Assembly: GCF_006345805.1 (NCBI RefSeq) | Contig: NW_021836359.1 | Coordinates: 1 to 24,469, forward strand | Direction: 5' to 3' | Source of the DNA: Octopus sinensis | Lineage: Eukaryota | Length of the DNA stretch: 24,469 nucleotides | Shown here: in pieces, positions 480 to 23,574 of the stretch | Numbering within the stretch: the stretch's first letter is position 1 | How the letters are laid out: each line of letters begins with the position of its first letter | Notes under the pieces: generated by a model | Told to the model about the DNA's origin: nothing | Databases searched by the model: none | Seen by the model: the letters and a program-made list of their open reading frames with translations, nothing else | Made by a program: the position numbers and the translations under genes

Positions 480-567
480 TTTCTTCCTGAAGAGAAAGAC
501 ACAATATGGTCCCATTATTCAATCGGATTTTGGTAATTTGTGCCTTTCGAACACGTGTAGAATGAAA
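480..567 (+). ncRNA. Minimal type I hammerhead ribozyme motif, family A (degenerate: GAA instead of GAAA)
   Basis: Stem I tttcttc/gaatgaaa; core CTGAAGA at 487-493; stem II gaaag...ctttc with inner cacaa/ttgtg pairing; GAA then palindromic stem III acacgtgt; GUA triplet. One A is missing from the GAAA core. Confidence 0.6.
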
Positions 568-781
568 TAAAACGATTTCTGTTCAATCTGCGTTCAGCTC
601 CATTTCTTCAATTCACCAATAATGTTTTAATTTCAATTATCCGCACCAACGCACGGTTGCAACGCCAGATGGTTGTACCTCCAACCGTGCTGTTTACCGC
701 TGTGATTTTTGCTACTAAGGTATCGGTTAAACTTTTGATTAATCTACTACAAGATTATTCATCTTTCTATTTCACATAAAT

Positions 782-790
782 TATATATAT

Positions 791-830
<40 letters not shown>

Positions 831-840
831 TATATATATT
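782..840. repeat. (TA)n microsatellite
   Basis: Read directly from the sequence. Confidence 0.95.
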
Positions 841-1258
841 TGTTGTGAAAAATTTTGTATGTGAAGTCGTGTGTTGAAACATTGTTGTATTTCGGAAAAT
901 TTATTGGCTAAACTGGCAAAATGACCATTCCGAAATATAACAATAATAATAGCATTAACAATAGAAATAATAATAATAATAAGAATGGTAAAAATAAAAA
1001 TAATAAAAATAATAGTAATAATGATGATAACAATAATAATAACAATATTTATATAAATAGTGATAATAACAATACCAATAATATAGGTAGTATAGATAAA
1101 AGTATGGCAGGTGGGAATGATGGTGAGGATGGATTAATAACTAGTAACCCTAATTTGAATAACAACGTGGTTACTCATAATGAAAGTTATACTAATACTA
1201 ATAATAATTTAAATAACAGTAATCCTTAAATAATTCTAGAACTGAATACTATCCCCCC

Positions 1259-1684
1259 AGTTGTAATTGTAGGATTAGATTAAAATGTCTGGTTTCTGGT
1301 CGTTCTTCGGTCCAAAACGTAATTTATAAATGCACGATAATAACCTCTAACAATAGTTTTCTTTATTTCGGATGTTCGGTGGATCTTAAAAGACGTCTTA
1401 ACAATCATTTTTCCTCTTTTAGACTAAAACATAAGGCAGGTTGCACAGCACTATCTAGCAATATTTGGGAACTAAAAACAAACAATATAGGATTCAACCT
1501 AAAATGGGATATAGTTAGAAGGGCGAAACCTTATAGATATAGTAGGGAAGGTTGTCAACTTTGTTCGATGGAAACTTATGAAATTTTAAAACATCAGAGT
1601 AATATAAATCTGTTAAATAATCGTCTGGAGTTGGGATGATCTTGTATACATTCCACAACCCGAACGTTTAAATACTTTAAATAA
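1259..1684 (+). pseudogene. PLE GIY-YIG endonuclease domain, decayed
   Basis: Translates as SCNCRIRLKCLVSGRSSVQNVIYKCTI...LYFGCSVDLKRRLNNHFSSF...TALSSNIWELK...WDIV...CQLCSMETYEI...LLNNRLELG*SCIH. Shows VIY/YFG (GIY-YIG), the CxC and CxLCxxE Cys motifs, and the LLN motif. In-frame TGA at 1637; frameshifted relative to the upstream Asn-rich ORF. Confidence 0.88.
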
Positions 1685-2254
1685 AAATTGTGAGTATTCC
1701 TATATTTTTCAAATTTTAACTTTTTATTATAATAATAATAAGAAATATACTATGCTAGCTTTCAATTTAACTTTCATAGATGACTAAGAAAACTTCACTG
1801 TAAACTTGAAATTGGAATTTTTTCTAAATCTAATCTAGTTTTAAAATGAATAAGGCGTTCCCCCAGTTATAAAATACTATGCCTACTCATAATAATAAGT
1901 GATAGGTTTTTTTCCCTACTCTCTGTAAAAGGGATTAATGACCATTTGACATTGACCTAGTTTCTCTCACCAAATAGCAGTAATTGGCATTTTGTTAGTG
2001 GCAACTACTGTCTTCAACTTGAATTCCTTTTATGTTATTCTGAAACCTCCTTTACCCCATTCCTACAACTAAAAAATCTTTATTACTTCTAACCTTATAG
2101 CAGTTAGATACAGCCATAGCTTGGTCAGTCAGTGGTTGGACTTCACTACCTCATACATTCTTAAAATTTAAATCTACATCTTTGTCTGTATATCTACCTT
2201 CTCTATAATGTTGCTACTTGATTTGAAAGCTTTTATATTAATGGAAAATCTATT

Positions 2255-2347
2255 TAATTGGCTGATGAGCACTCAGCATCTTAAATCTGTTGTAATACTT
2301 GCAACTTTTAATAAAATGATGTAGTGCGAAACAATTGTACCAAATTA
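2255..2347 (+). ncRNA. Type I hammerhead ribozyme in the PLE1 pseudo-LTR, family B, intact core
   Basis: Stem I taattgg/ccaaatta; CTGATGA 2262-2268; stem II gcact (2269-2273)/agtgc (2323-2327) enclosing a ~49 nt structured insert; GAAA 2328-2331; palindromic stem III acaattgt; GUA cleavage triplet 2337-2339. Confidence 0.88.
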
Positions 2348-2526
2348 CCGGAGTCATTCTTGTTGCTTATTTTGATTATAATCACCCCGCAAATTTTTAT
2401 GGATAACGCCATACAAAATTCTGCTGCATCTAAATTAAGTACCATATTCATTCGAATCTAAATTTTTGCTGAACTTATAATTCCATATATTGTATATGCT
2501 TTCCGGTACTTAACTTCTCAACAAGA

Positions 2527-4264
2527 ATGAAAAAGGTAAACATAGAGTTTTCCCCAAAGGATATCCCCTTACATAGTAAGGACGAATACATATGACTGTT
2601 GATCCACAGAACCAATGAATTTATCCGAAGAATTAGATGGATTATTTACCATTACGATACCAAACAGAAAAAAGCCCCTCAACTAACACACCTGGATAAT
2701 CGCTACAAAAAGATTTTTAGAAGTAGGAAGAGCCCACCTCCGAATCCATTGCTTGAAAGCTTTGAAAAAGATCTACTGAACTTTATCGCAAATATAAAAT
2801 TCAAGGAACATCCACTGAGATACAATCCACACCTTAAATATCTAAAGGATTTCATTAAATCTGTTCAACATAAGCAGGACATCCTAGTCCCAGCCAACAA
2901 AACTGGAAACCTTTACAGAATGGATTATGCGACTTACAGCAAACTCATTAGAAAGGAACTAAACTTAAGGTATAAAGTAACAACCAAGAAAAACTTGAGA
3001 GAGATCAATTTAGAAATCAAAAAATTTATGGTGAATTACGATCTGACCGATAGAACGGAGCCTCTTAAACCATGTGAATCCAGGATTAATCTTGAGGCCC
3101 ATAAGAAAAATTTCTCAGAAAACCTCTCGGTAAGACTCATATGTCCAACCAAGTCGGACATTGGCCGACTTAGCAAATCTATTTTGGACAATATTCTACC
3201 CCGTATAATTCCTAATCTCCCCTTGAGTCTATGGATTAATACAGATGAAGTGATAGATTGGTTTAAATCTCTAGATAACACTAATAGAATTTCTTTTATC
3301 CAATTTGATATTAACAATTACTATTCTAGTATATCCCCCATTCTACTAAATAAATCGTTTATTTTTGCTATGAATCGCTCTCTCATATCTAGGGAGGAAG
3401 TTGACATCATCCTATTAGCTAGAAAAACTATCATCGAATTTGAAGGTAAATTATGGACTAGGGCAGATACCCCTAATAATTTTGATATACCTATGGGCTC
3501 CATTGACTCAACGGAGATAACGAATCTGGTGGGAGCATACATATTAAAATGCATAAACAGAGATATTCCTGAGTTACAAGGTGGTCTATATAGAGATGAT
3601 TCTTTGTTCGTTGTACCTAGCAATAGTAAATCAAGTATTGAGAGAAAAAAAAAGAAAATTAAATTTTTTTAAAGATTTTAACCTAGGCATTTTAAAGATT
3701 TTAACCTAGGCGCAGGAGTGGCTGTGTGGTAAGTAGCTTGCTAACCAACCACATGGTTCCGGGTTCAGTCCCACTGCGTGGTACCTTGGGCAAGTGTCTT
3801 CTGCTATAGCCCCGGGCCGACCAATGCCTTGTGAGTGGATTTGGTAGATGGAAACTGAAAGAAGCCCGTCGTATATATGCGTATGTATGTTTGTGTGTCT
3901 GTGTCTGTCCCCCTAGCATTGTTTGACAACCGATGCTGGTGTGTTTACGTCCCCGTCACTTAGCGGTTCGGCAAAAGAGACCGATAGAATAAGTACTGGG
4001 CTTACAAAAGAATAAGTCCCGGGGTCGAGTTGCTCGATTAAAGGCGGTGCTCCAGCATGGCCGCAGTCAAATGACTGAAACAAGTAACAGAGTAAAAAGA
4101 GTAAAGAGGCATTACTTATGAACCTAACACTTAGATAGTTAATTTCCTAGACGTTACCTTGGACCTAAATTCAAAGTTACATTACCCATTTAGAAAGGAG
4201 GGCGAGGTCACTAGATATGTAAGTAAGTCATCTAATCACCCCCCGAATATACTAAAATCATTAG
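2527..4264 (+). pseudogene. PLE reverse transcriptase, decayed and SINE-interrupted
   Basis: MKKVNIEFSPKDIP...; in-frame TGA at 2593; motifs ANKTGN, VRLICPTKSDIG, IQFDINNYYSSI, FDIPMGSIDSTEITNLVG, GLYRDD. Homopolymer frameshift at ~3670. Resumes after the SINE as [19 protein letters not shown]...[16 protein letters not shown] (4108-4263). Confidence 0.9.
3708..4106 (+). mobile_element. tRNA-derived SINE, full length (probable Nin/Deu-type central domain, LINE-derived tail)
   Basis: A box tggctgtgtgg, B box ggttcagtccc, central ccttgtgagtggatttggtagatggaaactgaaagaagcccgtcg, tail ccagcatggccgcagtcaaatgactgaaac plus (agtaaa) repeats. TSD aggcatt at 3685-3691 and 4107-4113. Second copy at 23707-24094. 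Confidence 0.9.
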
Positions 4265-4287
4265 TTATATCAATATTATTATTATTA

Positions 4288-5245
4288 TAATGATATGAGA
4301 GGTGAGTGAGATTGGACGGTAATTCACGGCAAGCGATTTGTTTCCTTTTTTGAAAACTGGGACAACAGACTGGGATAGAAGGTCTTCTGGTATATATCCA
4401 GCATCCAGTGAGTTCCGCCACGGATTGGCTAGAGGGGGTGCAAGTTGGTGTTGACACATCTTCAAGACACAAGCAGGGAACCTATCGGGACCTACTGCTG
4501 AATTATGCTTCATTTCCTTTATTGCTTCTATGACATCAGGGGCGCCAAAGGTTATGTCCGATAAGGTGTATTGGGGAGTAACATTACTGATACAACCCAG
4601 ATCAGCCATATCAGGATTGCTGAAAACAGAGCAGTATTGTTTCTGCAGCATCTCTCCCATAGTTTTGGCATTGTCTTGAAGAGTACCATTTTCATCATTC
4701 AAAGGGCCAACAGTAGAGCCAGTGACTTTGCGTTTCTGTTTTGCAACTGAAAAGAACACTTTGGGATAAAGTTTGATCTTCTCAATGGCCCAGGCCTCTT
4801 CAGCTCTTCTCTGACTATTGATGATAGACATCATGTCGTTTTGGAGGTTATGTTTTTTAATCTCTAGTGATGTGATGGAAGTCAGGTTGGTGTGTTGCTG
4901 TTGACAGTATTTCAGCTTGTTGATTTTTTTGTTAATTCTTTTAATTTTCCCGATGAATGTTTTTCTATTTCTAGGGATTCTGCACTTAGATTTGTTTACA
5001 GATCTTAATGGGGTGTGTTTTGCACATATGTTTGTAATGGTGTCTACATTTGACTGCCAGGACTTTTTGATGTTAGTGGGTGTGTATGTGTGCGTGAAGG
5101 ACCAATTGACATGTGCAAGATCATTACTGATCGCTTCCCAGTTTGCTTTGTGGAAATCCATAGTGTCAAATGGATGGACAGGAGGGATGATGTTTGTTTT
5201 GCATTTTGGCCGGTGAAATCTCAGATCACAGAGAACCATGTCATG

Positions 5246-5310: not shown

Positions 5311-5386
5311 TCATATAAGAATTTTTTTGCGTAATAAGATAAAAAAACCAAGGCTGTATAGATATTCGAGCATTTATAGATAGAAG

Positions 5387-5438
5387 GTCTTACAGCTGTT
5401 TCTAGGATATTAATTAATAATATCCCTTCATCGAAGAC
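5387..5438 (-). ncRNA. Minimal type I hammerhead motif at the PLE2 3' end, family C (variant core UCGAUGA)
   Basis: Minus strand reads gtct TCGATGA ag ggatatta ttaat taatatcc ta GAA acagctgt A agac. Stem I gtct/agac, stem II ggatatta/taatatcc, palindromic stem III, GUA triplet. Confidence 0.72.
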
Positions 5439-6469
5439 GGTGTGAGAAGAAAAATTAAGTCATAGTTAGTTTCGATGTGATACAAATAGAGAGTGAGGTG
5501 GAGGAAAGAAATTAGATGTAAGATATGTGTAGGTGTTGAATTTGTAAATCCGTTTTATAGGCATAATGGTATATATGCGATATTCCAATATCCCTTGAGT
5601 AAAATTCAAAAGTCCGACAGACTCATATGAGTCCTTCCAAATATAGAGTTTATAAGCAATGTAAGATTCTCTTAAACTTGGTCATTCCCAGTAGGGAATT
5701 TATATAGAGTGTAGTAGAGTCAAGGTTTGTATTTGAAATAACCTGGAAATAGGGAGTGTATTAGTATGGTTAAATTGAAAACAGGAAGAGAGGAATGAAA
5801 TAAAGAGAAAAAATGAAAAGAGGAGAGAAAGAAAGAAGGAAAGAGAAAGGAGAGAGAAGATTAGTAAAAGTAATAAAAAAAAAATAAAGAATAAAAACCC
5901 TGAAGATATGAATAAACCACAATAAAGAAAAACGAAAAATTAAGAATAGGTCAGTCAGTGGTCAGTGGAGATAATTTGAAAGTAGGAATGGGGATAGAGA
6001 GAGAAAGGTATTATAGTGTAAAAGATAGAAGAATGGGGGTGGTTAAGAGGTAGAGGAAAGACCAATGTGTAGTAGTAGCTTCTAATTGCGAGGCAAATAT
6101 ATGAAGAATTAAGGAAATAGCAGTGTTAAGTAGTCTGAGAAAATACATATGAAGATGTATATACATGTATATATCAGATAAGTTACAAATACAATCCTTA
6201 TTCGCATGTGTATGCCTTCTTACACGCTCACTTATACATTCATCTACATGAATCATCGCCCCCGCATATGCATTTTTATATACCTTGCATGTGTACATAT
6301 GTTTACATATACCCACATGTATGCATATATGCACATATATACGCGCACATGGGTGTGTGCGCGTATATATGAATTCGAATATAATCAGATGGTTGCATAT
6401 GTGAGAAACTAGATAGGGATTATGAGTTAGAGTGTAACATTTATAGGTTAATGGGATTACCTAAGAATT

Positions 6470-6870
6470 ATTGGGGAAATGTACTGTATGGTCATTCTGG
6501 CATTTGGATTTGTGACAGAATTTAAATGTGTGATAAAAGCGGTAGTTGCATGTGCTTAGTGCCTCGTTATGTTTATTAAGCAGTGTTGGAGAGTTGAGTC
6601 TAGTATGGACCATGATAGAGTATAGGGTATATTTGCATTTTTGAGATGATGTATGTGGTTGGCGAGTGTTGTAGATTTACTATGTTTATCGTATCTAAAA
6701 GAGTGGAGATGAGTGGCATATCATTGCTTAAAATTTTTTGTTGATCCTATGTATATGGCTGTAGAGTTGTGTAATCGGTTGAGGACCGTGCATTTGTAGA
6801 TTACATTATATCTTCTGCAATGGGTTTGTAGCGGTCAGGTGGTTCCAAGACGGCAATTACAATTAGGTGA
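6470..6870 (-). pseudogene. PLE GIY-YIG endonuclease domain, decayed
   Basis: My translation of the minus strand: SPNCNCRLGTT*PLQTHCRRYNVIYKCTVLNRLHNSTAIYIGSTKNFKQ*YATHLHSFRYDKHSKSTTLANHIHHLKNANIPYTLSWSIL. Homologous to 1259-1684, with two in-frame TGA codons. The 3' boundary is approximate. Confidence 0.85.
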
Positions 6871-6948
6871 CTTTTGAGGACCGTGTTCGGTAACTGAGGA
6901 GGTAGTATCATCAGAAGAGAGGTTATAGAAGGGGGTAAAAATTTCTAT

Positions 6949-6955
6949 ATTATTA

Positions 6956-7047
<92 letters not shown>

Positions 7048-7058
7048 ATTATTATTAA
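6949..7058. repeat. (ATT)n microsatellite within the PLE2 RT-EN linker
   Basis: Read directly; it is (AAT)n, i.e. poly-Asn coding potential, on the element strand. Confidence 0.9.
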
Positions 7059-7199
7059 CGTTATCATTACTATCACCGCCACTACTACTATTGTTACTGT
7101 TACTTCTGCTATTTGTCGGGGCATTAGAGATTATGGTGGTATTCCGGGCAGTGTTAGTAGAATGGGTTGGGTTGTGGTTGTGATCAAATGTAAGGATAT

Positions 7200-8478
7200 C
7201 TATGCTAGATATGTATGTGTGTTGATTATTTGTATTAATAGAGTTGTAGTTATGTGAGCTTTGATAGTAAAGAGAGAGAGCTTTTGCTTATTCGAGGCTG
7301 CTACAATAGATTCAAAGTTAGGTGAGTTTGAATAAGATAGTTTCAGGGTGGAGCTATTAAAGATAGAATGATATTTATGTTGTCGAGGGAAGTTAGAGTC
7401 TAGTATTCTAAAGAAGGATTTAGCTAAGTTCTTAACGTTAAGTGAGAATGGTGGTGTGTACCATAAAATAGAGCAATAGCCACTTTTTTTAGGGGGTCTG
7501 GGAATAGAGCTATCTAAATTGTTAGATAAATGAGTGTTATCTAACTTTTTGTGTAGGGTGTGTGGCAAGCGAGGCCTGTTATTGTTAGCTGTTTTATTTG
7601 TTTTAGTATTTGACCTGTTGTTAAATGAATGTGTGTGGGGTCTACGTTGTCTGGGTGCAATAGCTTCCATGGTCTCATCGACTGTGTGTGTTTGGTTGCG
7701 CTTATGATGGTTGTTGCGTGTTTGAGATGTGATTTGAGATATGTATTGATTGAGCCTGGTTTTCTGGATGTATTCTATTTGTTGGCAGAAGCCGTTAGCA
7801 GCGACTGCTTGATTACAATATGGTGCGTGATTATTGAAGATTTCTTCAGTGGAAGAGATGTCAGATATGCGGGTTGAGATTCCTTTGATTATATTATTAA
7901 AAGTGGATTTGTGGTGATTGGAATGGATGTTAAGGTATTTAAAGTACTGATTAGGTTTGTGGTAAGGGGAGTATTGGGATGTTGATAAGTTTAGGGTTGC
8001 GTTCATAAAATTAGCAGTTTTGTGAGCGTTTTCGAATGTGATAGATAGGTTCAGGTTAGAAAAGAATTTATGTAGGTCTTTTCTGGTTCTTTCTAAGGAT
8101 GATTTATTTATGCTTTTAGTAATTAATAAAGCGTCGTCCCTATATAGGCCTCTCTTGATATTAGGGAAGTGCCTGTGGAGCTGGTGTAGTATATAAAGTC
8201 CAACTAAGTCATTGACCTGAGCTGAATCCGAGGATCCCATGGTTATGTCGAATAGGTTGCTACGGTTGATGCTATGGTTATTGGTCCGGCACCATAGTTT
8301 GCTATCAAAAGGAATAAGGGTATTGCGGGCATTAAGTATAATGTTAATTTCAAGTGGGTTTAGGTTAGTAGAGAAGAGCTTGATTAAGTAATTTAGGAGA
8401 AATAAAAGATTAATAGTTGTTTATATCAAATTGTAAAAATGAATATGCTTTTTTGTTATTTATATGATTTAACCATGC
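7200..8478 (-). pseudogene. PLE reverse transcriptase, 5'-truncated and decayed
   Basis: YSFLQFDINNY*SFIS near 8400-8450; ORF 7200-8240 has MGSSDSAQVNDLVGLY, GLYRDDALL, ANFMNATLNL, YLNIHSNH, ILWYTPPFSLNV, HKYHSIFNSSTLKLSYS. Confidence 0.9.
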
Positions 8479-8489
8479 AATCAATCAAT

Positions 8490-8527
<38 letters not shown>

Positions 8528-8672: not shown

Positions 8673-8728
8673 ATAATATATAATATATAATATATAATCA
8701 AAATAAGCAACAAGGATATCCAGAGGTA

Positions 8729-8817
8729 ATGCAGTACGATCGTTTCATGCGACTCCATTTAATTGAACAATGCAAATATTACATCAATTTATAATGTAGA
8801 GCAATCTTCTGTTGCAT
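8729..8817 (-). ncRNA. Type I hammerhead motif, family D (degenerate core CAGAAGA)
   Basis: Minus strand reads atgca a CAGAAGA t tgc...gca t GAA acgatcgt A c tgcat. Stem I atgca/tgcat, long stem II insert, palindromic stem III, GUA triplet. Confidence 0.62.
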
Positions 8818-10009
8818 AAAAATATAGAATTTAGTTAAATTCGAAGTATTCAATTGTATAGTTTTCTTATCCAAAATCACAAAGAGGATAAGTAGATAGA
8901 CAAAGAACATGTTTTATAACATCCCAGAGATTTTTCAAAGGAAGATACTGCTTATCATTGATTATATTTGTTATTCAGATTTACTGGGCGCGGGGGGGGG
9001 GGTTAGTTTTAATTTATAGACTGGTTTATCAAGTCTAATAGAAACTAGAATCTATCCTTTATGGATAGGGTAAAAAGACAGTTTAAGTGGCAGACTCATA
9101 AATCAAGATTTCTTTGAAGTAAAAACCATTTGGTTCAGTAACAATATACTTCAGCTAAGTTTGCTGGCTAAAGCTGATAGGGTAGGGAGAGTAAAACATA
9201 TAGCATTAACCATTTGACAACTATAAAAGCAGTGTTATTTATATATTTATATATACATAGAGTTGTTTTTAGAGTTGTTTAAAAAGAAACAATAAGAAGT
9301 ATATTTCAGAATATTTTCAGTATTATCAGAAGGATGGGGAATATAGAAATAATTCCATATTTATATATTTCTATACTAACTTAATATATATTTATAGTTA
9401 ATTATTAAATAGTAATTTTTGTTATTAATAAAGGAAAGTTAAGTTAAAAGAATATGTTAAAAATTTATATATTATATGTTAATAATTTTATTTAGAGCAT
9501 ATTTCTTATATTATAAAATAAACAGTGTATTATACCAGTATAGTTTTATATAAGTTGAGTATGAAATTTATAGAGATATATTATAAATAAATAAAATGAT
9601 ATAGTGAGTAAATAGGTAAGAAACTACCCGCTCCTATTCTCTCATCAGACCTCACATTAGCCCACTGGACACCATCTTTGTACAGAAACTCAAAAATGAT
9701 TATAAGGATGGAGACCCTGATGTGAGTGACAGATGTTCATCTGGCCCCTCTGATCGACAAAGGAACACACCCGAAACGAAAACCAAAATCGAGAGACCTG
9801 TTAAGGAAGAAGACACCAGCACTGATGGCCCTACCACAACCAATATCAAAAATGCGAAAGAACCAATAAAGGGTTAGAAAATAAAGATAAAGAAGAAAAG
9901 GGATGACGATAGAAGTAAAACCGAAGCAAAAAACAAAAGAGAGCCCCAAAGTAAAACACAAAAGCCAGACAGTCAACATGCAAAGCTACAAACAGTTAGG
10001 AAGTATACA

Positions 10010-10871
10010 CAAGTGTTTAAATTCTGCCTGCGTGGTGATTGCTAGAATGGACATGATGGTGCAAACTGCTGCTTCCTGCATCCAAAACCATAAAACATGC
10101 AGACCAAAAGCAAAAGTGTCTCTCTAAAACACAGAGGAAGACCCCAAAGAGGAAAAAGTGCATCACCTGCATCAAAGCTAAAATATGCCGATGTAGTGTG
10201 CACTACCTCTAAAAACCAACCCTACCCAGAAGCTGTCACAAGGGTTGCAGCTGAGTAAGAATCTTTTTATGCATGGCTCAAAAGATTGTGCAACAATTAA
10301 CCTGGTTTCATCAATTTCAGAGTTGGAGCCATCTGCTCCAAGATGCAAGACCGCCACAACCAATGGATCCAGGGTGGCCACCACTGGCATCAGTACAGAG
10401 GTCACACCAGTATACTTCGTAAATGTAAGAGGACTGTTACAACTCAGTAGCAGAACTAAAATTACCTTCCTGAGAGACCTAGTGACCTGCAATCAAGCCT
10501 TATGCATAGCACTCACTGAAACACACTTTCGCAGATGCAGAAATACACATACCGATAACGTTGTATTGCGAAGCGAGAGAAAAGACAGGGGCCATGGTGA
10601 AGTTATAATGTACATCAATGAAGATCTCACATCTCAGATCCTTTTGTCACTCTCAAATTCAGTGTGTGACACACTAATTGTACATATAATACAATTCGAC
10701 ATAGTTATATGTACTACATATCGCCTGCCAGATGCCCCAAATCAAACAGGCCTATTCGAAGACTGTTTTGCAAGACCTCTTCTAAGAGGTATTAACCAAA
10801 CAATAAGAGCACATCAGTGTACTTCTAATGGGAGACTTCTACATGCCCAATGTGAAATGGCTGGAAGGTAA
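10010..10871 (+). mobile_element. CR1-like LINE 5' fragment: ORF1 CCCH zinc-finger remnant plus ORF2 APE endonuclease, decayed
   Basis: QVFKFCLRGDC*NGHDGANCCFLHPK at 10010-10090; YFVNVRGLL...LCIALTETH...RSERKDRGHGEVIMYI...ICTTYRLPD; another frame gives VLLMGDFYMPNVKW. ORF1 probably extends upstream to ~9620. Confidence 0.82.
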
Positions 10872-11312
10872 CAAAATGGAAACAAAAACAGGTCAGTGAG
10901 AACAAAACAGTAAAAACAAACGGTGAGGGCTGTTAAGCCAAGACGATGTGAAGTGGTGAGCGCTAGAGAAACGAGCTTTGAGAAGAGACAGATAAAAGCA
11001 CATCATTTCATTAGGAAGGAAGTGGAAGAAAGATGGATGGCCGTTAGTCACGTGTGAGCGACGAGAGAGTGAAGGGGAGAGGAGAAGAAAAGGGAAAGGC
11101 CATATGACTTGCACTATCACACAAAACACTACATGGCAGCTTTCAAAGAATCTTTGGTGTTATGGGCGCGTTCATAATATATATATAGAGAGATGGAAGA
11201 ACATTGTAGAAAATGAAGGAGAGTATATTTTAGATTAAAAAGTAACTTTGCTTATCTTAATTTTAAAAATAAAAATATAAACAACCGCATTATGTATGGG
11301 ATGACCCAATAA

Positions 11313-11347
<35 letters not shown>

Positions 11348-11350
<3 letters not shown>

Positions 11351-11512
11351 GAATGGATGGCTGAAAATTTTCATGATTACACAATCCCTAATATTTTGCC
11401 TCCTAATTCCCAAGATCTCAATCCACTGGACTATTACATGTGGAGCGTTGTTGAGAGAGAGGTCAATGAACACGCTCATAACACCAAAGATTCTTTGAAA
11501 GCTGCCATGTAG
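11348..11512 (+). mobile_element. Tc1/mariner transposase C-terminal remnant
   Basis: Translates QEWMAENFHDYTIPNILPPNSQDLNPLDYYMWSVVEREVNEHAHNTKDSLKAAM*, matching the WPPxSPDLNPLD motif. Confidence 0.8.
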
Positions 11513-11740: not shown

Positions 11741-11798
<58 letters not shown>

Positions 11799-11806
11799 TA
11801 TATATA

Positions 11807-12348: not shown

Positions 12349-12673
12349 GTATAATGAAAATAAACGTCTGTGTGTCTGTCGATTTATAAGAAGAAAGGCT
12401 AGAGCATCTAAAAAGACCTAAAAGTGTGAAATTTTTCCAGGAAGACAGTGGAAGTGGTCTCGAGTCTCTAGGTGCCCCCTAATGGGATCCACGGGTAATT
12501 TCCAAAATGTTTCACATAGCACAGTACCCCTCACCCCACCAAAAATGACCGGTCTAAAGGAGATAACTAAATAAAAGATGAAACCCCAATAAATTGTTCA
12601 ATGCAATCTTAGTGAATGACTTCCAATATTCATAGTACAATTTTGTCAGCTTTTTCAACCCAGTCCACAACGG

Positions 12674-12769: not shown

Positions 12770-12776
<7 letters not shown>

Positions 12777-13300
12777 TGGAAGAACATTGTAGAAAATGAA
12801 GGAGAGTATATTTTAGATTAAAAAATAACTTTGCTTATCTTAATTTTTAAAAATAAAAATATAAACAACCGCATGATGTATGGGATGACCCAATACACAG
12901 ACACACACACACACAGAGGAATAGATGGCTAAAAATTTTCATGATTACACAATCCCTAATATTTGGCCTCCTTCCCAAGATCTCAATTCACTGGACTATT
13001 ACATGTGGAGCGTTGTTGAGAGAGAGGTCAATGAACACGCTCATAACACCAAAGATTCTTTGAAAGCTGCCATGTAGCGTGATTCTCCATCTCAGTGACA
13101 TATTTGTCTGTTTTATATGGTCATGTCATAATTATTTAGGACATGTATCTATACTGGCCATCTAGAAAATAAGAAATAAAAAATAAGACAATAAGAAAAT
13201 AAGAAATCTCCATTAGTGTCTGTTTAAAACGTGTTTTCGTCATGACCTCAGTGATACTAAAAAATTTATAAACAATTTCTAATGCCTAGTTACTTCCTCC

Positions 13301-13336
<36 letters not shown>

Positions 13337-13570
13337 TTAAATCCTTAAAAATGTTCTAGCCCGAAGGCCGCGGCTATGCTGGAGCACCACCACTGAATGA
13401 GCTCCACTAATATGTGAATCCCCCTCTGATACGTGGCACTTGATCAACAAGGGAGTTCGATGCTGCTGCGGTATCTGGACCTGTATTTTGATGGTGATGT
13501 TGGAAACTTTGGCACCATGCAGTGGCGCCCCGTTCTGCGGTTGGGGTAACTTTGAATGCCAAAGTTTGGG
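12770..13570 (+). repeat. Direct duplication of ~11189-12198 (Tc1 remnant plus LINE 3' end) with an internal 153 bp deletion
   Basis: agagatggaagaacattgtag...aaagtttggg matches the earlier copy with scattered substitutions; the segment equivalent to 11945-12097 is missing. Confidence 0.9.
12918..13077 (+). mobile_element. Tc1/mariner transposase remnant, duplicated copy
   Basis: Copy of 11348-11512 with a small deletion near the WPPxSPDLN motif. Confidence 0.75.
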
Positions 13571-13661
13571 CATGGCCGCAGTCAAATGACTGTGAAACAA
13601 GTAAAAGAGTAATATATATATATATATATATATATAATAATATATATTATATATATAATAT

Positions 13662-13772
13662 ACCGGAGTAGTAAAGACATAAATGTGAAACAAGGTGGAA
13701 AAAAGAGTACTCAAATATCAGTGTTAGAGTAATACCAGTGGTAGAGTACTCAAATACCAGTGGTAGAGTAAT
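13662..13772 (-). repeat. 3' fragment of the HHR family G element, with short internal duplications
   Basis: Reverse complement of 23611-23680 (ttactctaccactggtatttgagtactc...tactccggt); taccagtggtagagta is repeated. Confidence 0.8.
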
Positions 13773-13963
13773 GACCGGTCTAAAGGAGATAACTAATTAA
13801 AAGTTGAAACCCCAATAAATTGTTCAATGCAATCTTAGTGAATGACTTCCAATATTCATAGTACAATTTTGGCAGCTTTTTCACCCAGTCCACAACGGTA
13901 TATATATATATATACCATCCAGGATTTTCCAGATGTATATCACCGCATATCTCTCCGCCTCCG

Positions 13964-14033
<70 letters not shown>

Positions 14034-14060
14034 TATATATATTTATTATTATATAGAAGG

Positions 14061-14110
14061 AGCTTCTACAGGACTAGTACTGTTTCATTCAGAGAAATCT
14101 TCAGGAAGCT
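14061..14110 (-). ncRNA. Type I hammerhead motif, family E copy 1
   Basis: Minus strand reads agcttc CTGAAGA tttctctgaat GAA acag tactagtc ctgt A gaagct. Perfect 6 bp stem I, short stem II, GUA triplet. Confidence 0.8.
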
Positions 14111-14850
14111 ATTAACAAGAATTGTATTAGCATTTATACATTTAGGCAGGTTTAAAGGAGTGGTGGTGGGGGACTTTTTTGGGGTAGGCATAGCGCAAAA
14201 TATCATACTTGGGGGAGTGGTCAAGGAGTCAGTGGTAAGTTAGATGAAAGAATAGATAATAAAAAAAATAAATAAAAAAAAAAAAAAAAAAAAAAAAAAT
14301 AAAAAATAAAAAATAAAAAAATAAAAAATAAAAAAAAAAAAAATAAAAATAAAAATAATAAAAAAAATAAAAAAAATAAATGTGTGCACATACATACATA
14401 AAAACATATACATACACACACATACGTACACATGTGTGCCTATACATACCTACACATACACACATACATACATAATATATTATATATATATATATATATT
14501 ATATAATATATATATATAACACAATCAAATACAGGCCCATTCCCTAATTTTAATTTTATTATCTTCATTTATTACTTTTGTTATCTTTGATCGCTAGGGC
14601 TAAGGATCCTGGCGATGGCAGCATGTCCAATTGTCTGTCTACTAGAAGGCAAGTACTCGTTCCCGCACGCACACTCATTAGCACGTACATACACCCATTC
14701 GTACACTCATACACATACACGTACGCACGCGTATATTCATACATACAAACATCTACATACGTTCACATATATACACATACGTACTCGTACCTACAGATTC
14801 ATGTCTACACTTTAGGAGGCTAGTCTTATATATACACCAATAAATATACA

Positions 14851-14899
<49 letters not shown>

Positions 14900-14963
14900 A
14901 CACACACCACACACACATATATTACTCCTACATACAGATACATACCCATATATATATACATAT

Positions 14964-15036
<73 letters not shown>

Positions 15037-15261
15037 CATACACCACACACACATATATATACACACACATACATACACATATATAACATACACAAACATA
15101 ATACACACATATATATATATACATATATACACACATACATACACACACCTACATACATATACACACACACATACATACGTCAACATACATACATACATCC
15201 ATACATCCATACTTACATGCATTTATACGCATACATACACCCCATATATATATATATAAAA

Positions 15262-15335
<74 letters not shown>

Positions 15336-15416
15336 GGTCCGGGCTGATCCGGGTTAACCACAGTAAGTAAGGTACTCAATACATCGCAGAGTAAAATTAA
15401 TTTATTATATAGAAGG

Positions 15417-15465
15417 AGCTTCCAGGACTAGTACTGTTTCATTCAAGAGAAATCTTCAGGAAGCT
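15417..15465 (-). ncRNA. Type I hammerhead motif, family E copy 2 (UA of the cleavage triplet deleted)
   Basis: Same as 14061-14110 but ctgga replaces ctgtaga. Confidence 0.65.
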
Positions 15466-15780
15466 ATTTAACAAGAATTTATTAGCATTTATACATTTAG
15501 GCAGGTTTAAAGGAGTGGTGGTGGGGGACTTTTTTGGGGTAGGCATAGCGCAAAATATCATACTTGGGGGAGTGGTCACGGAGTCAGTGGTAAGTTAGAT
15601 GAAAGAATAGATAAATAAAAAAATAAAAAATAAAAAAAAAAATAAAAAATAAAAAATAAAAAATAAAATGTGTGCACATACATACATAAACACATATACT
15701 ACACACACACATACGTACACATGTGTGCCTTATACATACCTACACATACACACATACACATACATATTATATACATACAT

Positions 15781-15846
<66 letters not shown>

Positions 15847-16328
15847 ATCCAATACAGCCCATTCCCTAATTTTAATTTATATCTTCATTTATTACTTTTG
15901 TTATCTTTGATCGCTAGAGCTAAGGATCCTGGCGATGGCAGCATGTCCAAATTGTCTGTCTACTAGGAGGCAAGTACTCGTTCCCGCACGCACACTCATT
16001 AGCACGTACATACACCCATTCGTACACTCATACACATACACGTACGCAACGCGTTATATTCATACATACAACACATTTCATACGGTCACGTATATACACA
16101 TACGTACTCGTACTACAGATTCATGTCTACACTTTAGGAGGCTAGTCTATATATATACACCAATAAATATACATATATATATATTATATATATATATACA
16201 TATATATATATACACATATACACATACACACACACACACACATATATATACTCCTACATACAGATACATACCTATATATATAATATATATATATACCCAC
16301 ACATACATGTACACATATATATATATAC

Positions 16329-16381
<53 letters not shown>

Positions 16382-16604
16382 CATACATACATACACACAC
16401 ACCCATATATATACACACACATACATACACTATATATACATACACAAACATATATACACACATATATATATATACATATATACACACATACATACACACA
16501 CCTACATACATATACACACAAACACATACATACGTAAAACATACATACATACATCCATACATCCATACTTACATGCACTTATACGCATACACCACACCCC
16601 CATC

Positions 16605-16635
<31 letters not shown>

Positions 16636-17216
16636 ATATTATATATATATATATATATACACACTCAGACATACATATACAAATATACGCCCACACATAC
16701 ATACATACATACACGTATACGCATACACGCACTACACATATACATGCGTACCCATACACGTGCCCACACGCACATGCATCCATATGTATACACACACACA
16801 CATATATACACGTGTGCAAGCATACATACATACTCATACACGCACACATACTTACATATACATATATGCACACACTTACACACATATATACATACACATA
16901 TACATGCATACATACATATATGCATACATACACATACACGCACATAACATATACACATGCGTACCCATACACGTGCACGCACGCACGCGCATCCATATAT
17001 ATACACACGCACGCATATATATACACGTGTGCAAGCATACATACATACTCATACACGCGCACATATTTACATATACATATATGCACACACTTCCACACAT
17101 ATATACATACACATATCATGCATACATACATTATGCATACATACACACACGCGCACTCATATATACATATATATATACACACACATACACATATATACAT
17201 ATACATATATATGTAT

Positions 17217-17249
<33 letters not shown>

Positions 17250-17361
17250 TATATATACACACACTACACATACACACACATATACATACATATACACATA
17301 CATATATATACACATATACACATACACATACATGCACACATACACACACATACAATACACC

Positions 17362-17403
<42 letters not shown>

Positions 17404-18152
17404 TAGGTGTGTACATATGTGTATATATATATATATATATATGTATGTAGGTGTATGTGTATGTGTGTGTATGTGTGCATGTATGTGTATGTGTATATGT
17501 GTATATATATGTATGTGTATATGTATGTATATGTGTGTGTATGTGTATTGTATATATATATATATAATATATTATATATATATATATACATATATATATG
17601 TATATGTATATTGTGTATGTGTGTGTATATATATATGTATTATGAGTGCGCGTGTGTGTATGTATGCATATATGTATGTATGCATGTATATGTGTATGTA
17701 TATATGTGTGGAAGTGTGTGCATATATGTATATGTAAATATGTGCGCGTGTATGAGTATGTATGTATGCTTGCCACACGTGTATATATATGCGTGCGTGT
17801 GTATATATATGGATGCGCGTGCGTGCGTGGCACACGTGTATGGGTACGCATGTGTATATGTGTATGTGCGTGTATGTGTATGTATGCATATATGTAGTAT
17901 GCATGTATATGTGTATGTATATATGTGTGTAAGTGTGTGCATATATGTATATGTAAGTATGTGTGCGTGTGTATGAGTATGTATGTATGCTTGCACACGT
18001 GTATATAGGTGTGGGTGTGTATACATATGGATGCATGTGCGTGTGGGCACGGTATGGGTACGCATGTATATGTGTATGTGCGTGTATGCGTATACGTGTA
18101 TGTATGTATGTATGTGTGGGCGTATATTTGTATATGTATGTCTGAGTGTGTG

Positions 18153-18200
<48 letters not shown>

Positions 18201-18439
18201 ATATATATATATATAGATGGGGGTGTGTGTATGCGTATAAGTGCATGTAAGTATGGATGTATGGATGTATGTATGTATGTTTACGTATGTATGTGTTTGT
18301 GTGTATATGTATGTAGGTGTGTGTATGTATGTGTGTATATATGTATATATATATATATGTGTGTATATATGTTTGTGTATGTATATATATGTGTATGTAT
18401 GTGTGTGTATATATATGGGTGTGTGTGTATGTATGTATG

Positions 18440-18476
<37 letters not shown>

Positions 18477-18604
18477 TATATGTGTATGTATATATATATA
18501 TATATGTGTACATGTATGTGTGGGTATATATATATATATATATAGGTATGTATCTGTATGTAGGAGTATATATATGTGTGTGTGTGTGTGTATGTGTATA
18601 TGTG

Positions 18605-18651
<47 letters not shown>

Positions 18652-19356
18652 TTATTGGTGTATATATATAGACTAGCCTCCTAAAGTGTAGACATGAATC
18701 TGTAGGTACGAGTACGTATGTGTATATACGTGAACGTATGAAGATGTTTGTATGTATGAATGTAACGCGTGCGTACGTGTATGTGTATGAGTGTACGAAT
18801 GGGTGTATGTACGTGCTAATGAGTGTGCGTGGGGGAACGAGTACTTGCCTTCTAGTAGACAGACAATTTGGACATGCTGCCATCGCAGGATCCTTAGCTC
18901 TAGCGATCAAAGATAACAAAAAGTAATAAATGAAGATAATAAAATTAAAATTAGGGAATGGGCCTGTATTGGATTGTGTATATATATATATATAATATAT
19001 ATATTATATATAATATATATATAATATATGTGTGTATATATGTATATATATATATGTATGTGTATGTGTGTATGTGTAGTATGTATAGGCACAAATGGTA
19101 CGTATGTGTGTGTGTATGTATATGTGTTTATGTATGTATGTGCACCACATTTTTTTTTTTATTTTTTAGTTTTTATTTTTTATTTTTTATTTTTTATTTT
19201 TTATTTATCTATTCTTTCATCTAACTTACCACTGACTCCTTGACCACTCCCCCAAGTATGATATTTTGCGCTATGCCTACCCCAAAAAAAGTCCCCCACC
19301 ACCACTCTTTAAACCTGCCTCTAAATGTATAAATGCTAATACAATTCTTGTTAAAT

Positions 19357-19406
19357 AGCTTCCTGAAGATTTCTCTTGAATGAACAGTACTAGTCCTGTA
19401 GAAGCT
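19357..19406 (+). ncRNA. Type I hammerhead motif, family E copy 3 (GAA instead of GAAA)
   Basis: agcttc CTGAAGA tttctcttgaat GA acagtactagtcctgt A gaagct. Confidence 0.68.
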
Positions 19407-19444
19407 CCTTCTATATAATAATATATATATATATATTATATATA

Positions 19445-19942
19445 TACACACTCACACATACATATACCAAATATACGCCCACACATACATACATACAAGT
19501 ATACGCATACACGCACATACACATATACATGCGTACCCATAACGTGCACCCACGCACATGCATCCATATATATACACACACACACACATATATACACGTG
19601 TGCAAGCATACATACATACTCATACACGCACACATACTTACATATACATATATGCACACACTTACACACATATATACATACACATATACATGCATACATA
19701 CATATATGCATACATACACATACACGCACATACACATATACACATGCGTACCCATACACGTGCACGCACGCACGCGCATCCATATAATACACACACACAC
19801 ATATAATACACGTGTGCAAGCATACATTAATACTCATACACGCGCACATACTTAATATACATATATGACACACTTACACACATATATACATACACATATA
19901 CATGCATACATACATATATGACATACACACACACGCGCACTC

Positions 19943-19982
<40 letters not shown>

Positions 19983-20720
19983 CACATATATATATATACA
20001 TATATATACACAAACATATATATTCACATATACACATACACATACATGCACCCTACACACACATACACATACACATACATATATATATATACATATATAT
20101 ACACATATATACACATATACACATACATATATACACACATACATACATATACATACACACACACATACATATACACGGATACACATACCATACATATATA
20201 TAGTATATATATACAACAACACACACTATACACATGCATAACTTATATCTCTACATACTCACATATAAACATATATATATATACACACACACATATATAT
20301 ACATGTACACACACAATACACATATACATAAACATATACACATACACACCATACATATATATATATATATACACATACATATACTATATACATAATTATA
20401 TATATATACACATATATATATACATATACCCCCACATATTATACATATAATACACACATATACACACAACCACACACACATACATATACACATATACATG
20501 TATACATACGCAATAATGATAAACATATCTACACATTACACACACACAGACAGATGCATATACATACATATATATATATATAAACTACATATCTATATAA
20601 ATACATACATAATACAATATACACACACTATATACATACATATACATAACATATATATATACATATATATATATATACATAATATATAATATATACATAT
20701 ATATATATACATATATACAT
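19445..20720 (+). repeat. Forward-orientation, progressively degenerate copy of the 16660-17350 CA/TA complex repeat
   Basis: Shares anchors aaatatacgcccacacatac, atgcgtacccatacacgtgc and acacgtgtgcaagcatac, then decays into irregular CA/TA. Confidence 0.75.
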
Positions 20721-20724
20721 ATAT

Positions 20725-21074
20725 TTTTTTTTATTTTTTATTTATTTTTATTTTTTTTTTTTTTTTTTTTATTTGTTATTTTTTATTTTTTTTTTATCTA
20801 TTCTTTCATCTAATACCACTGACTCCTTGACCACTCCCCCAAGTATGATATTTTGCGCTATGCCTACCCCGAAAACAAGTCCCCCACCACCACTCCTTTA
20901 AAACTGCCTAAATGTATAAATGCTAATACAATTCTTGTTAAATAGTTTCCTGAAGATTTCTCTTGAATGAAACAGTACTAGTCCTGTAGAACTCCTTCTA
21001 TATAATAAATTAATTTACTCTGCTATGTATTGAGTACCTTACTTATGTGGTTAACCCCGGATCAACCCGGGACC

Positions 21075-21077
<3 letters not shown>
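20725..21077 (+). repeat. Family E 3' end, reverse complement of ~15333-15665
   Basis: T-rich tract, then ctattctttcatc...ccactcccccaagtatg...cccgggacctac, then (TA)n. Confidence 0.88.
20944..20993 (+). ncRNA. Type I hammerhead motif, family E copy 4
   Basis: agtttc CTGAAGA tttctcttgaat GAA acagtactagtcctgt A gaact; core intact. Confidence 0.75.
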
Positions 21078-21147
<70 letters not shown>

Positions 21148-21472
21148 ACGTATAATGAAAATAAACGTCTGTGTGTCTGTCGATTTATAAGAAGAAAGGC
21201 TAGAGCATTTAAAAAGACCTAAAAGTGTGAAATTTTTCCAGGAAGACAGTGGATGTGGTCTCGAGTCTCTAAGTGCCCCTAATGGGTTCCACGGGCGATT
21301 TCCAGAATGTTTCACATAGCACAGTACCCCTCACCCCACCAAAAATGACCGGTATAAAGGAGATAACTAATTAAAAGTTGAAACACCAATAAATTGTTTC
21401 AATGCAATCTTAGTGAATGACTTCCAATATTCATAGTACAATTTTGGCAGCTTTTCAAACCCAGTCCACAAC

Positions 21473-21475
<3 letters not shown>
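21148..21475 (+). repeat. Copy of the unclassified ~328 bp repeat at 12347-12674
   Basis: Direct sequence match with several substitutions. Confidence 0.85.
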
Positions 21476-21571
<96 letters not shown>

Positions 21572-21795
21572 ATAATTAATCAATATAGGGTGGCAAAAAC
21601 TTTTGTAGGAATTTTCTTGCCACCAGCGGCCTAGTGGGAAAAAATTAAATAGTCATAGACCATTTTAAGTTCAACATCAACAATCAAGGAACGGCCATAA
21701 TAGGCCATTCACCCACTAGAAATAACAGCCAAGCTTCAACCGCAATAAAGTCAATTCCGTAAACAGGAGAAAATTTAAAAAACATTTACCCTGTA

Positions 21796-21900
21796 ATTTC
21801 TTATACGATGCACCGTTTCGTCTGCTGTTAATGGTAAACTAACCTGATTAATTAAATCAAGCCAATCTTCCATAGGCCCTCAGATTCTTCAGTAAGAAAT
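21796..21900 (-). ncRNA. Type I hammerhead ribozyme, family F copy 1
   Basis: Minus strand reads atttctta CTGAAGA a tctg...caga c GAA acggtgcatcgt A taagaaat. Perfect 8 bp stem I, extended stem II, GUA triplet. Confidence 0.85.
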
Positions 21901-22281
21901 AGCCACAAGTCAGAACAGATATTTTCACGAGGCATTTCCGACCGTGCCAAGTTAATATCTGACCTAAAATTTTCAAATCATCGCACTCGCGCCAAATTTA
22001 TCGGCAGCAAATAAATATAAGCCGTCGATTCCATTACGGAATTACCAGAAAATTCATAATTAATCAATATAGGTGGCAAAAAAATTTGTAGAATTTTCTT
22101 GCCACCAGCGGCCTAGTGGGAAAAAATTAAATAGTCATAGACCATTTTAAAGTTCAACATCAACAATCAAGGAACGGCCATAATAGGCCATTCACCCACT
22201 AGAAATAACAGCCAAAGCTTCAACCGCAAATAAAAGTCAATTCCGTAAACAGGAGAAAATTTAAAAAACATTTACCCTGTA

Positions 22282-22388
22282 ATTTCTTATACGATGCACC
22301 GTTTCGTCTGCTGTTTAATGGTAAACTAACCTGATTAAATTAAATCAAGCCAATCTTCCATAGGCCCTCAGATTCTTCAGTAAGAAAT
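22282..22388 (-). ncRNA. Type I hammerhead ribozyme, family F copy 2
   Basis: As copy 1, 486 bp downstream. Confidence 0.85.
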
Positions 22389-22658
22389 AGCCACAAGTCG
22401 GAACAGATATTTTCACGAGGCATTTCCGACCCTGCCAAGTAAATATAAGCCGTCGCAAGAAAATTCTACAAAATTTTTTTGCCACCCTATATTGATTAAT
22501 TATGAATTTTCTGGTTAATTCCGTAATGGAATCGACGGCTTATATTTATTTGCTGCCGATAAATTTGGCGCGAGTGCGATGATTTGAAAATTTTAGGTCA
22601 GATATTAACTTGCAGGGTCGGAAATGCCTCGTGAAAATATCTGTTCCGACTTGTGGCT

Positions 22659-22763
22659 ATTTCTTACTGAAGAATCTGAGGGCCTATGGAAGATTGGCTG
22701 ATTTAATTTAATCAGGTTAGTTTACCATTAACAGCAGACGAAACGGTGCATCGTATAAGAAAT
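22659..22763 (+). ncRNA. Type I hammerhead ribozyme, family F copy 3
   Basis: atttcttaCTGAAGAatctg...cagacGAAAcggtgcatcGTAtaagaaat read directly. Confidence 0.85.
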
Positions 22764-23147
22764 TACAGGGTAAATGTTTTTTAAATTTTCTCCTGTTTAC
22801 GGAATTGACTTTTATTTGCGGTTGAAGCTTTGGCTGTTATTTCTAGTGGGTGAATGGCCTATTATGGCCGTTCCTTGATTGTTGATGTTGAACTTTAAAA
22901 TGGTCTATGACTATTTAATTTTTTCCCACTAGGCCGCTGGTGGCAAGAAAATTCTACAAAATTTTTTTGCCACCCTATATTGATTAATTATGAATTTTCT
23001 GGTTAATTCCGTAATGGAATCGACGGCTTATATTTATTTGCTGCCGATAAATTTGGCGCGAGTGCGATGATTTGAAAATTTTAGGTCAGATATTAACTTG
23101 GCACGGTCGGAAATGCCTCGTGAAAATATCTGTTCCGACTTGTGGCT

Positions 23148-23252
23148 ATTTCTACTGAAGAATCTGAGGGCCTATGGAAGATTGGCTTGATTTAATTTAA
23201 TCAGGTTAGTTTACCATTAAAAGCAGACGAAACGGTGCATCGTATAAGAAAT
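23148..23252 (+). ncRNA. Type I hammerhead ribozyme, family F copy 4
   Basis: As copy 3, 489 bp downstream, with one T missing in stem I. Confidence 0.82.
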
Positions 23253-23373
23253 TACAGGGTTAAATGTTATTTTAATTTTTCCTGTTTACGGAATGACTTT
23301 TATTTGCTTGGGTTGAAGATTTGGCTGTTATTTCTAGTGGGTGAATGGCCTATTATGGCCGTTCCTTGATTGT

Positions 23374-23439
<66 letters not shown>

Positions 23440-23484
23440 ATATATATTACTTTATTTTAAGCAGTGCAGAAAATTCAACAGAAT

Positions 23485-23521
23485 CTGTTACTCTGAGTTC
23501 TCGTTGCCGTTCATCAGACAG
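23485..23521 (-). ncRNA. Minimal hammerhead motif, family G left copy (GAA instead of GAAA)
   Basis: Minus strand reads ctgt CTGATGA acggcaacga GA actcagagt A acag. Confidence 0.65.
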
Positions 23522-23536
23522 TTTTGCTAGCAAAAA

Positions 23537-23574
23537 CTGTCTGATGAACGGCAACGAGAAACTCAGAGTAAAAG
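23537..23574 (+). ncRNA. Minimal hammerhead motif, family G right copy
   Basis: ctgt CTGATGA acggcaacga GAA actcagagt A aaag. Core intact, one stem I mismatch (aaag for acag). Confidence 0.7.

Follow-up and report, generated by a model that had tools for sequence, protein, structure and literature searches.

The window analysed here, the entire unplaced contig NW_021836359.1 (24,469 bases) of the 2.72-Gb Octopus sinensis assembly GCF_006345805.1, contains fourteen hammerhead ribozyme motifs of seven sequence families (A to G). It is very probably a nest of about eight Penelope-type insertions in (TA)n repeats, in which six families are truncated ends of Hydra-type Penelope-like elements (PLEs) and the seventh, family F, is a tandem retrozyme likely copied in trans. 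For a Hydra-type-rich genome such a cluster is ordinary PLE biology, and its useful part is F, a young family whose ends at reverse transcriptase (RT) start sites, inverted arms and TA targets are as in its coding neighbours, and in which the arms of one insertion share unit variants. Mobilisation of animal retrozymes by PLEs has so far been proposed from co-occurrence and from homology to pseudo-long terminal repeats (pLTRs). F makes the template question testable, namely whether the RNA copied is circular, a cut monomer or a multimer left uncut, and which RT reads it.

Hammerhead motifs and insertion anatomy

All fourteen motifs claimed by a first-pass annotation of the window were found at nearly the same positions, with the stem III palindromes given for them. 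A relaxed type I scan returned eight sites with a perfect CUGANGA box and nine when two box mismatches were tolerated, against a mean of 0 to 0.05 motifs (maximum 1) in 40 block-wise dinucleotide shuffles. The remaining five sites (D, E2, F4, G1 and G2) were identified by hand on a sense-strand print-out. A strict first scanner had detected only B and was superseded by the relaxed scan, and an Rfam scan of the window showed microsatellite noise and no hammerhead in the rows listed, 150 out of 191.

Core and stems are intact in seven of the fourteen motifs (B, E1, E4 and F1-F4), counting F4 with its 1-nucleotide (nt) deletion in stem I and E4 with only three pairs. G2 has an intact core and a broken stem I, and the core is damaged in A, C, D, E2, E3 and G1 (6/14): GAA stands in place of GAAA in A, E3 and G1, the core box reads UCGAUGA in C (5434-5428, minus strand) and CAGAAGA in D, and in E2 the UA of the cut site is missing. 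In the genomic copies of the families the CUGANGA, GAAA and NUH parts of the core are arranged as in type I, together with three stems; first-look candidates numbered 1304 (A), 2163 (B), 3492 (C), 1651 (D), 2604 (E), 1851 (F) and 82 (G), which are not copy numbers. In the closest genomic loci, core and stem III were both intact in 28/30 for A, 22/25 for B, 17/30 for D, 30/30 for E, 30/30 for F, 15/29 for G and 1/25 for C. The low figure for C arises because the majority core of this family reads CCGAUGA, found instead of CUGAUGA in 79 of the first 100 listed of 545 pattern matches. A subfamily of C has spread with this non-canonical core (U4 to C), and the CUGAUGA copies could be CpG decay. 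In all seven families the self-duplex of stem III is predicted at -6.4 to -17.5 kcal/mol and the hairpin at 0 to -1.4 kcal/mol, modelled energies that fit cleavage as dimers; cleavage after the NUH/GUA triplet is itself predicted. Dimeric PLE hammerheads were reportedly described by Lunse et al. in 2017.

One insertion pattern was seen in all seven families: a (TA)n target, varied 5' ends indicating truncation, an inverted 5' copy and an optional tail. Downstream of the cut site, two alternative 3' ends are also seen in every family, about 70-155 nt apart and each followed by (TA)n (A +65/+220, B +35-40/+135, C +70/+215, D +35-40/+140, E +20-25/+95, F +131/+237 and G +35-40/+110). The claim of fourteen motifs in 24 kb is correct as a count of motifs, and by this anatomy it comes down to about eight insertions: one each for A, B, C, D, F and G, with the four F motifs in one insertion and the two G motifs in another, and two for E. 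The E insertions are nested. The outer one (14046..21075) has a minus arm that carries E1 (14104-14067, short end) and resumes at about 19445-20720, and a plus arm that carries E4 (20950-20988, long end). The inner one (15335..19420), with E2 (15459-15423, long end) on its minus arm and E3 (19363-19400, short end) on its plus arm, lies in a (TA)n of the outer insertion, and the flanks of the inner block rejoin as an uninterrupted arm.

Published work on PLEs suggests how such copies would arise. The endonuclease would nick AT-rich DNA and the RT would start at two internal RNA sites downstream of the ribozyme, one per strand, which would give one arm with the tail and one without. For an anole PLE, the tail is described as the stretch from one RT start site to the other, and cleavage by the ribozyme as protein-assisted and dispensable for insertion in vitro (PMC11167929). 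Each insertion would leave (TA)n on both sides and so keep a target for the next. Cleavage after GUA is predicted to be slow and to proceed chiefly in dimers paired through stem III or with the aid of protein.

The pile-up and its inverted copies might alternatively be assembly artefacts of an unpolished contig. Single-base deletions are frequent in this unplaced contig relative to chromosomal copies, and a second small contig, C1665, duplicates its last 3.3 kb (21141-24469) at 99.8% and is either a haplotig or an assembly duplicate. We consider an artefact extremely improbable, however, since the inverted, two-ended anatomy occurs likewise at many chromosomal loci and fold-back reads would not produce arms with two different fixed ends.

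Outside the query, 37 family occurrences were counted in 949 kb of fetched DNA (233 loci with some overlap), a density of about one in 26 kb, compared with seven in the window; the library for this count held the seven families and 15 further flank clusters, a few of which may be chance motifs. A hand Poisson calculation with a mean of 1 to 1.4 puts seven or more per window at about 1e-4 to 6e-4, so that about 9 to 70 such dense windows would be expected in a total of roughly 110,000. Dense as it is, the nest does not exceed expectation from TA targeting and a genome-wide scan.

Fifteen additional hammerhead-like clusters, most with a short palindromic stem III, were observed in the flanks of loci L002-L242 within the 949 kb, and in flank cluster X1 the U4-to-C core change was present in 5/7 matches. 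The genome contains at least 20 clusters of ribozyme-like sequence and probably holds dozens of PLE ribozyme families.

Coding relatives of six families

The first-pass annotation regarded the motifs as Penelope-type hammerheads with a palindromic stem III, which we uphold, and it attached only B and C to coding PLEs, suggesting that the other five families may be non-autonomous. The second view holds for F. For A, D, E and G it does not: longer copies of these families reach a GIY-YIG endonuclease, and none of the four is a family devoid of coding sequence. Linkage to PLE open reading frames (ORFs) was seen for A to E and G, and not for F. That a family is just the end of an autonomous PLE, an outcome the annotation had raised against itself, was found for six of the seven. 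A, D, E and G are 5'-truncated 3' ends of coding RT/GIY-YIG elements, as B and C are.

Family A (1..779, plus strand) consists of the 3' untranslated region (UTR), hammerhead (core 487-559) and tail of a young Hydra-type PLE. Positions 1-668 are 98% identical to the near-full-length locus L033, where a 646-amino-acid RT frame is followed by the GIY-YIG endonuclease and then by the ribozyme. In the window A appears to lack an ORF because the contig begins inside its 3' UTR, 558 nt upstream of the cut site. Same-strand GIY-YIG sequence (at least 76% identity) lies about 0.6-1.4 kb upstream of the ribozyme in 15/30 three-kb loci; several of these 15 are two arms of one insertion, and two overlap the query locus.

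Family B (937..2475, plus strand) is a 5'-truncated copy with linker, GIY-YIG domain (1223-1639, Pfam E 4.8e-5), 3' UTR, intact hammerhead (2262-2339) and tail. Its positions 937-2380 are 93.5% identical to locus L171, and the endonuclease was found upstream of the ribozyme in 3/25 loci, the window included. After the B hammerhead, a PLE RT (2529..4260, plus strand) follows as a partial tandem. This RT, with RW and NKT motifs, YRDD and 44% identity to the family A RT, is broken by a stop, split by an insert at 3707-4095 and cut off at about 4260; it is assigned to B by contiguity in the window only, and no DNA match to it was found among the other fetched loci. The insert is one of two copies, in opposite orientation, of a repeat of about 390 nt resembling a short interspersed element (SINE), the other being at 23699-24095; these repeats seem octopus-like.

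In family C (5313..8480, minus strand) a 5'-truncated RT (8420-7203), linker, GIY-YIG (about 6830-6400), 3' UTR and hammerhead (5434-5391) are contiguous in the window itself, and 5313-6799 is 87-94% identical to locus L193, which has the endonuclease end in common. Family D (8695..9507, minus strand) is a 3' UTR fragment with a degenerate hammerhead (8811-8735), of which about 770 nt upstream are common to other loci; GIY-YIG sequence lies about 1.9 kb upstream, continuous from the 3' UTR, in 2/10 longer stretches (L238 and L241). For family E, an endonuclease was found about 3.1-3.3 kb upstream in 2/20 ten-kb loci (L213 and L214), which have the RT end, the endonuclease and a 3.2-kb CA-rich 3' UTR up to the ribozyme in common. 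The E 3' UTR (L213:4972-8297; window 14046-21075) is mostly CA/TA microsatellite. It contains the family's own (TA)n target, which allows self-nesting. Family G is a stump (23448..23699) of two inverted 3' ends, G1 (23517-23489, minus strand, short end) and G2 (23541-23570, plus strand, with tail), recognised by the 3' end of locus L140. L140 and L152 have 1.45-1.54 kb upstream in common, including GIY-YIG about 1.1 kb upstream of the ribozyme. An extra G tail fragment without a ribozyme was also observed at 13610-13734.

The order RT, endonuclease, ribozyme was recovered in A (L033), C (window) and E (L213), and endonuclease then ribozyme in B, D and G, with no RT seen upstream there; the frames of D, E and G are broken and were read in natural frames only. 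We regard it as very improbable that A, D, E, F and G are instead five distinct non-autonomous ribozyme elements, as the first-pass annotation proposed. None of the five adjoins an ORF of its own in the window, and most genome copies are indeed short, with no same-strand endonuclease match within 1.5 kb upstream in 30/30 D, 30/30 E and 28/29 G loci. Nevertheless, the longer copies of A, D, E and G reach GIY-YIG or RT/GIY-YIG at a constant distance in at least two loci, 5' ends differ from copy to copy as expected of truncation, and for A the five-element view is refuted.

The motifs of A, B, C, D, E and G fit those of the Hydra clade, for which Craig et al. 2021 (PMC8557442) give a definition by RT, linker and endonuclease motifs, with (TA)n insertion and hammerheads. 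The RT carries RIRW with DKT (A) or NKT (B), and RWL or RWI stands where RWK is expected. The CxCX5C linker is present in B, E and G, interrupted by a stop in C and not found in A; the endonuclease has CxxC..E..N in A, B, C, E and G, and CxH in A-E and G. The placement is by motifs rather than by an RT tree, and a first assignment to Neptune was dropped, the motifs being closer to the Hydra definition. The supplement of the same paper (File S2) includes Hydra hammerheads with a short palindromic stem III, among them actc-a-gagt, as in G, and ribozymes that, like those of D and E, carry U-U at the stem II base; an octopus family is in that list. The stem II-base mismatch, at first taken for an unusual trait, was dropped as such, for it is common among published Hydra motifs.

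Family F and its template

Family F occupies 21575..23377 as a single insertion of a 491-nt unit, with (TA)n on both sides. Its minus arm (22446-21575) holds ribozymes at 22380-22290 and 21892-21804 and ends at +237, and its plus arm (22452-23377) holds ribozymes at 22667-22755 and 23155-23244 and ends at +131. The unit measures 490-492 nt from cut site to cut site, has 36% GC, and its longest stop-free frame is 52 codons. All 30 genomic loci, which represent 17 separate arrays and a duplicate contig, contain nothing but unit sequence until (TA)n or the edge of the locus is reached. Arrays reach 11 units per arm with a type I hammerhead in every unit; the 3' half of the ribozyme has 521 exact genome matches (control 0), spaced mostly 490 apart among the 100 places listed. 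Arm ends fall near +131 in 13/24 and near +237 in 9/24, and 6/7 two-armed insertions have one end of each kind. The family is young, with a mean substitution of 0.4% from the majority. F is best read as a non-LTR retrozyme, the only non-coding family among the seven, and is likely mobilised in trans by PLE RT/GIY-YIG enzymes.

F has a sister family with 61% identity and a length of about 480 nt, which is also tandem (for example L198:2413-2995, minus strand, and L243-L260). The subfamilies of this sister (86-97% identity) form tandem arrays of their own, and no PLE protein match was found in 18 stretches. Stem covariation is assessable only in F and its sister, the copies of the other six families being too alike: in 18 rows of ribozymes, 97.7% of stem cells are paired and 6/12 pairs are altered on both sides, which is the covariation sought by the first-pass annotation, with few independent events. 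The symmetry of stem III round UGCA is kept in four versions, and in the first box the free core position 7 varies while the remainder is fixed. Folded as circles, the F unit has a predicted z of -5.7 and the sister of -3.4. The F unit with its head-to-tail joint was also found in assembled contigs of four public runs, none recorded as RNA, one contig being 521 nt long; the joint fits tandem and circle alike.

It has been discussed for such arrays (bioRxiv 10.64898/2026.07.22.740005, a 2026 preprint) that they can grow by unequal crossover, and F could then be a tandem pLTR or an internally deleted by-product of a matching coding parent, spread locally like a satellite. Among 43 full units, same-array pairs share variants more often than different-array pairs (38% of 113 vs 12% of 790; 0/2000 permutations), as local duplication would likewise predict, and the search for an F parent was shallow. 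This origin nonetheless seems improbable to us: arms of several units are found in either orientation and have complementary +131/+237 ends, the same unit variants appear in register in both window arms, 43/43 full units are preceded by more unit sequence and never by an ORF, and the 61%-identical sister is also a non-coding tandem, which points to an old lineage. BLAST of the F unit against the six coding families and the other fetched DNA returned only F-lineage copies.

Three private variants are identical in the two window arms, where they mark the full unit nearest the 3' end; upstream units are without them at the positions covered. As the arms share variants while neighbouring units differ, the template of the window insertion must have contained two or more different units, with a ribozyme site between them that was left uncut or was rejoined. 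The template would be a multi-unit RNA with at least some uncut ribozymes; cutting would release 491-nt units that may circularise. Tentatively, and as a possibility short of an even chance, F and its sister may form an old, self-standing ribozyme-RNA lineage without a sequence-matched coding parent. Such RNAs would exploit the RT/GIY-YIG proteins of Hydra-type elements by means of a conserved fold, and one insertion event from circles or from multimers not fully cut would suffice to produce an entire two-armed, multimeric array. If so, the arrays would be a genomic record of animal retrozyme movement, and F and its sister could serve directly as substrates in the in vitro PLE assay that already exists.

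Several observations weigh against the picture drawn here. The F arrays do not follow one uniform pattern: C14 (one variant common to 5/5 units) and C2a (almost no variants) both fit a monomer template, C8a and C9 have period 2 and fit a dimer, and C1 has no clean period, with the reservation that assembly polishing can mix units and blur such patterns. The arrays might accordingly be the work of an RT rolling round one circular 491-nt RNA released by the ribozyme, which the near-homogeneity of C14 and C2a, the predicted fold of the unit as a circle and the circles documented in other animal retrozymes (PMC7229834) would suit. A clean single-circle rolling model was rejected as fitting some arrays only, and rolling on a single circle is rather unlikely as the general route: neighbouring units are unlike each other in the window and in C1 although the arms share variants, which one monomer circle cannot yield, and period-2 arrays require at least a dimer. 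The stem changes on both sides date mostly from one divergence, that of F and its sister, and so represent few events. No coding parent with the F 3' end was found among the best 40 candidates per search and the 949 kb fetched, and a loose-end motif from the F contigs gave 0 genome matches in the search for one. The coding links of C, D, E and G come from two loci each, with no intact ORF recovered. The CCGAUGA majority in C sits badly with a strict requirement for a canonical core, and some of the damaged ribozyme copies in the window may be sequencing errors, given the indel-rich contig.

Sequence setting and known systems

The window is AT-rich, with (TA)n and CA-rich runs throughout. Local duplications of 95-97% identity join 11187-12198 to 12770-13570, and 12349-12673 to 13770-13898 and 21150-21474, so that a 325-nt segment is present on either side of the E block. 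Fragments resembling long interspersed elements (LINEs) were called by eye at 4265-5230 (minus strand, pre-RT region) and 10197-10871 (plus strand, a frame like an apurinic/apyrimidinic endonuclease, APE), and Pfam gave no match on either. Pfam matched 1/5 window proteins, leaving three RT frames and the APE-like frame unrecognised; a protein atlas gave eukaryotic clusters without a name, some of whose members carry HTH_animal or RVT_1, which is a lead only.

Hydra-clade PLEs, including Hydra-1_Obim of Octopus bimaculoides (PMC8557442), resemble the coding families here in the C-terminal GIY-YIG, RW/DKT, CxCX5C, and CxxC and CxH round E and N, as well as in (TA)n targets, a 3' hammerhead with a short palindromic stem III, inverted arms and a tail. 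The motif listed for Hydra-1_Obim is matched by none of the seven window ribozymes. Hydra elements are described there as <3 kb in all, whereas the 3' UTR alone reaches 3.2 kb in E and about 1.9 kb in D, and the tails of about 70-155 nt seen here compare with 30-40 nt in the Hydra clade.

The minimal hammerheads of metazoan PLEs (PMC4209133, Cervera and de la Pena 2014) and the anole PLE (PMC11167929) are alike in the many unrelated families per genome, the mostly truncated copies, the opposite-strand pairs and the palindromic stem III, with weak or protein-assisted cleavage and a tail from two RT start sites reported in those systems. Unlike the hammerheads of PMC4209133, those of 5/7 families here have a mismatch instead of G10.1-C11.1 at the base of stem II, and stem III of E and F has four pairs and could also close as a monomer.

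Animal non-LTR retrozymes (PMC7229834, Cervera and de la Pena 2020; bioRxiv 10.64898/2026.07.22.740005, Li, Clavereau and Pollet 2026) share with F the non-coding tandem unit, one type I hammerhead, low GC and the occurrence of dimers to multimers, and mobilisation by PLEs has been proposed for them. At 491 nt the F unit exceeds the 150-450 nt first described and falls within the 51-972 nt of the preprint. The 35 species of that preprint include no mollusc, and PMC7229834 describes mussel retrozymes. A cephalopod retrozyme was not found reported in the literature, with Repbase, Dfam and subscription papers outside the search, and the words hammerhead and retrozyme are absent from the main text of PMC13282606; the families may already sit in the supplements of the preprint or in the repeat library of PMC13282606. 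F differs from the known animal retrozymes in that no matching coding pLTR was found in the 949 kb fetched, and it directly displays the marks of PLE insertion (inverted arms, TA targets and both RT-start ends), which we did not find reported for retrozymes in the excerpts of these two sources. Hydra hammerheads of the present form, including an octopus one, are already published; what is new here is one non-LTR retrozyme family, F, with clear PLE insertion marks.

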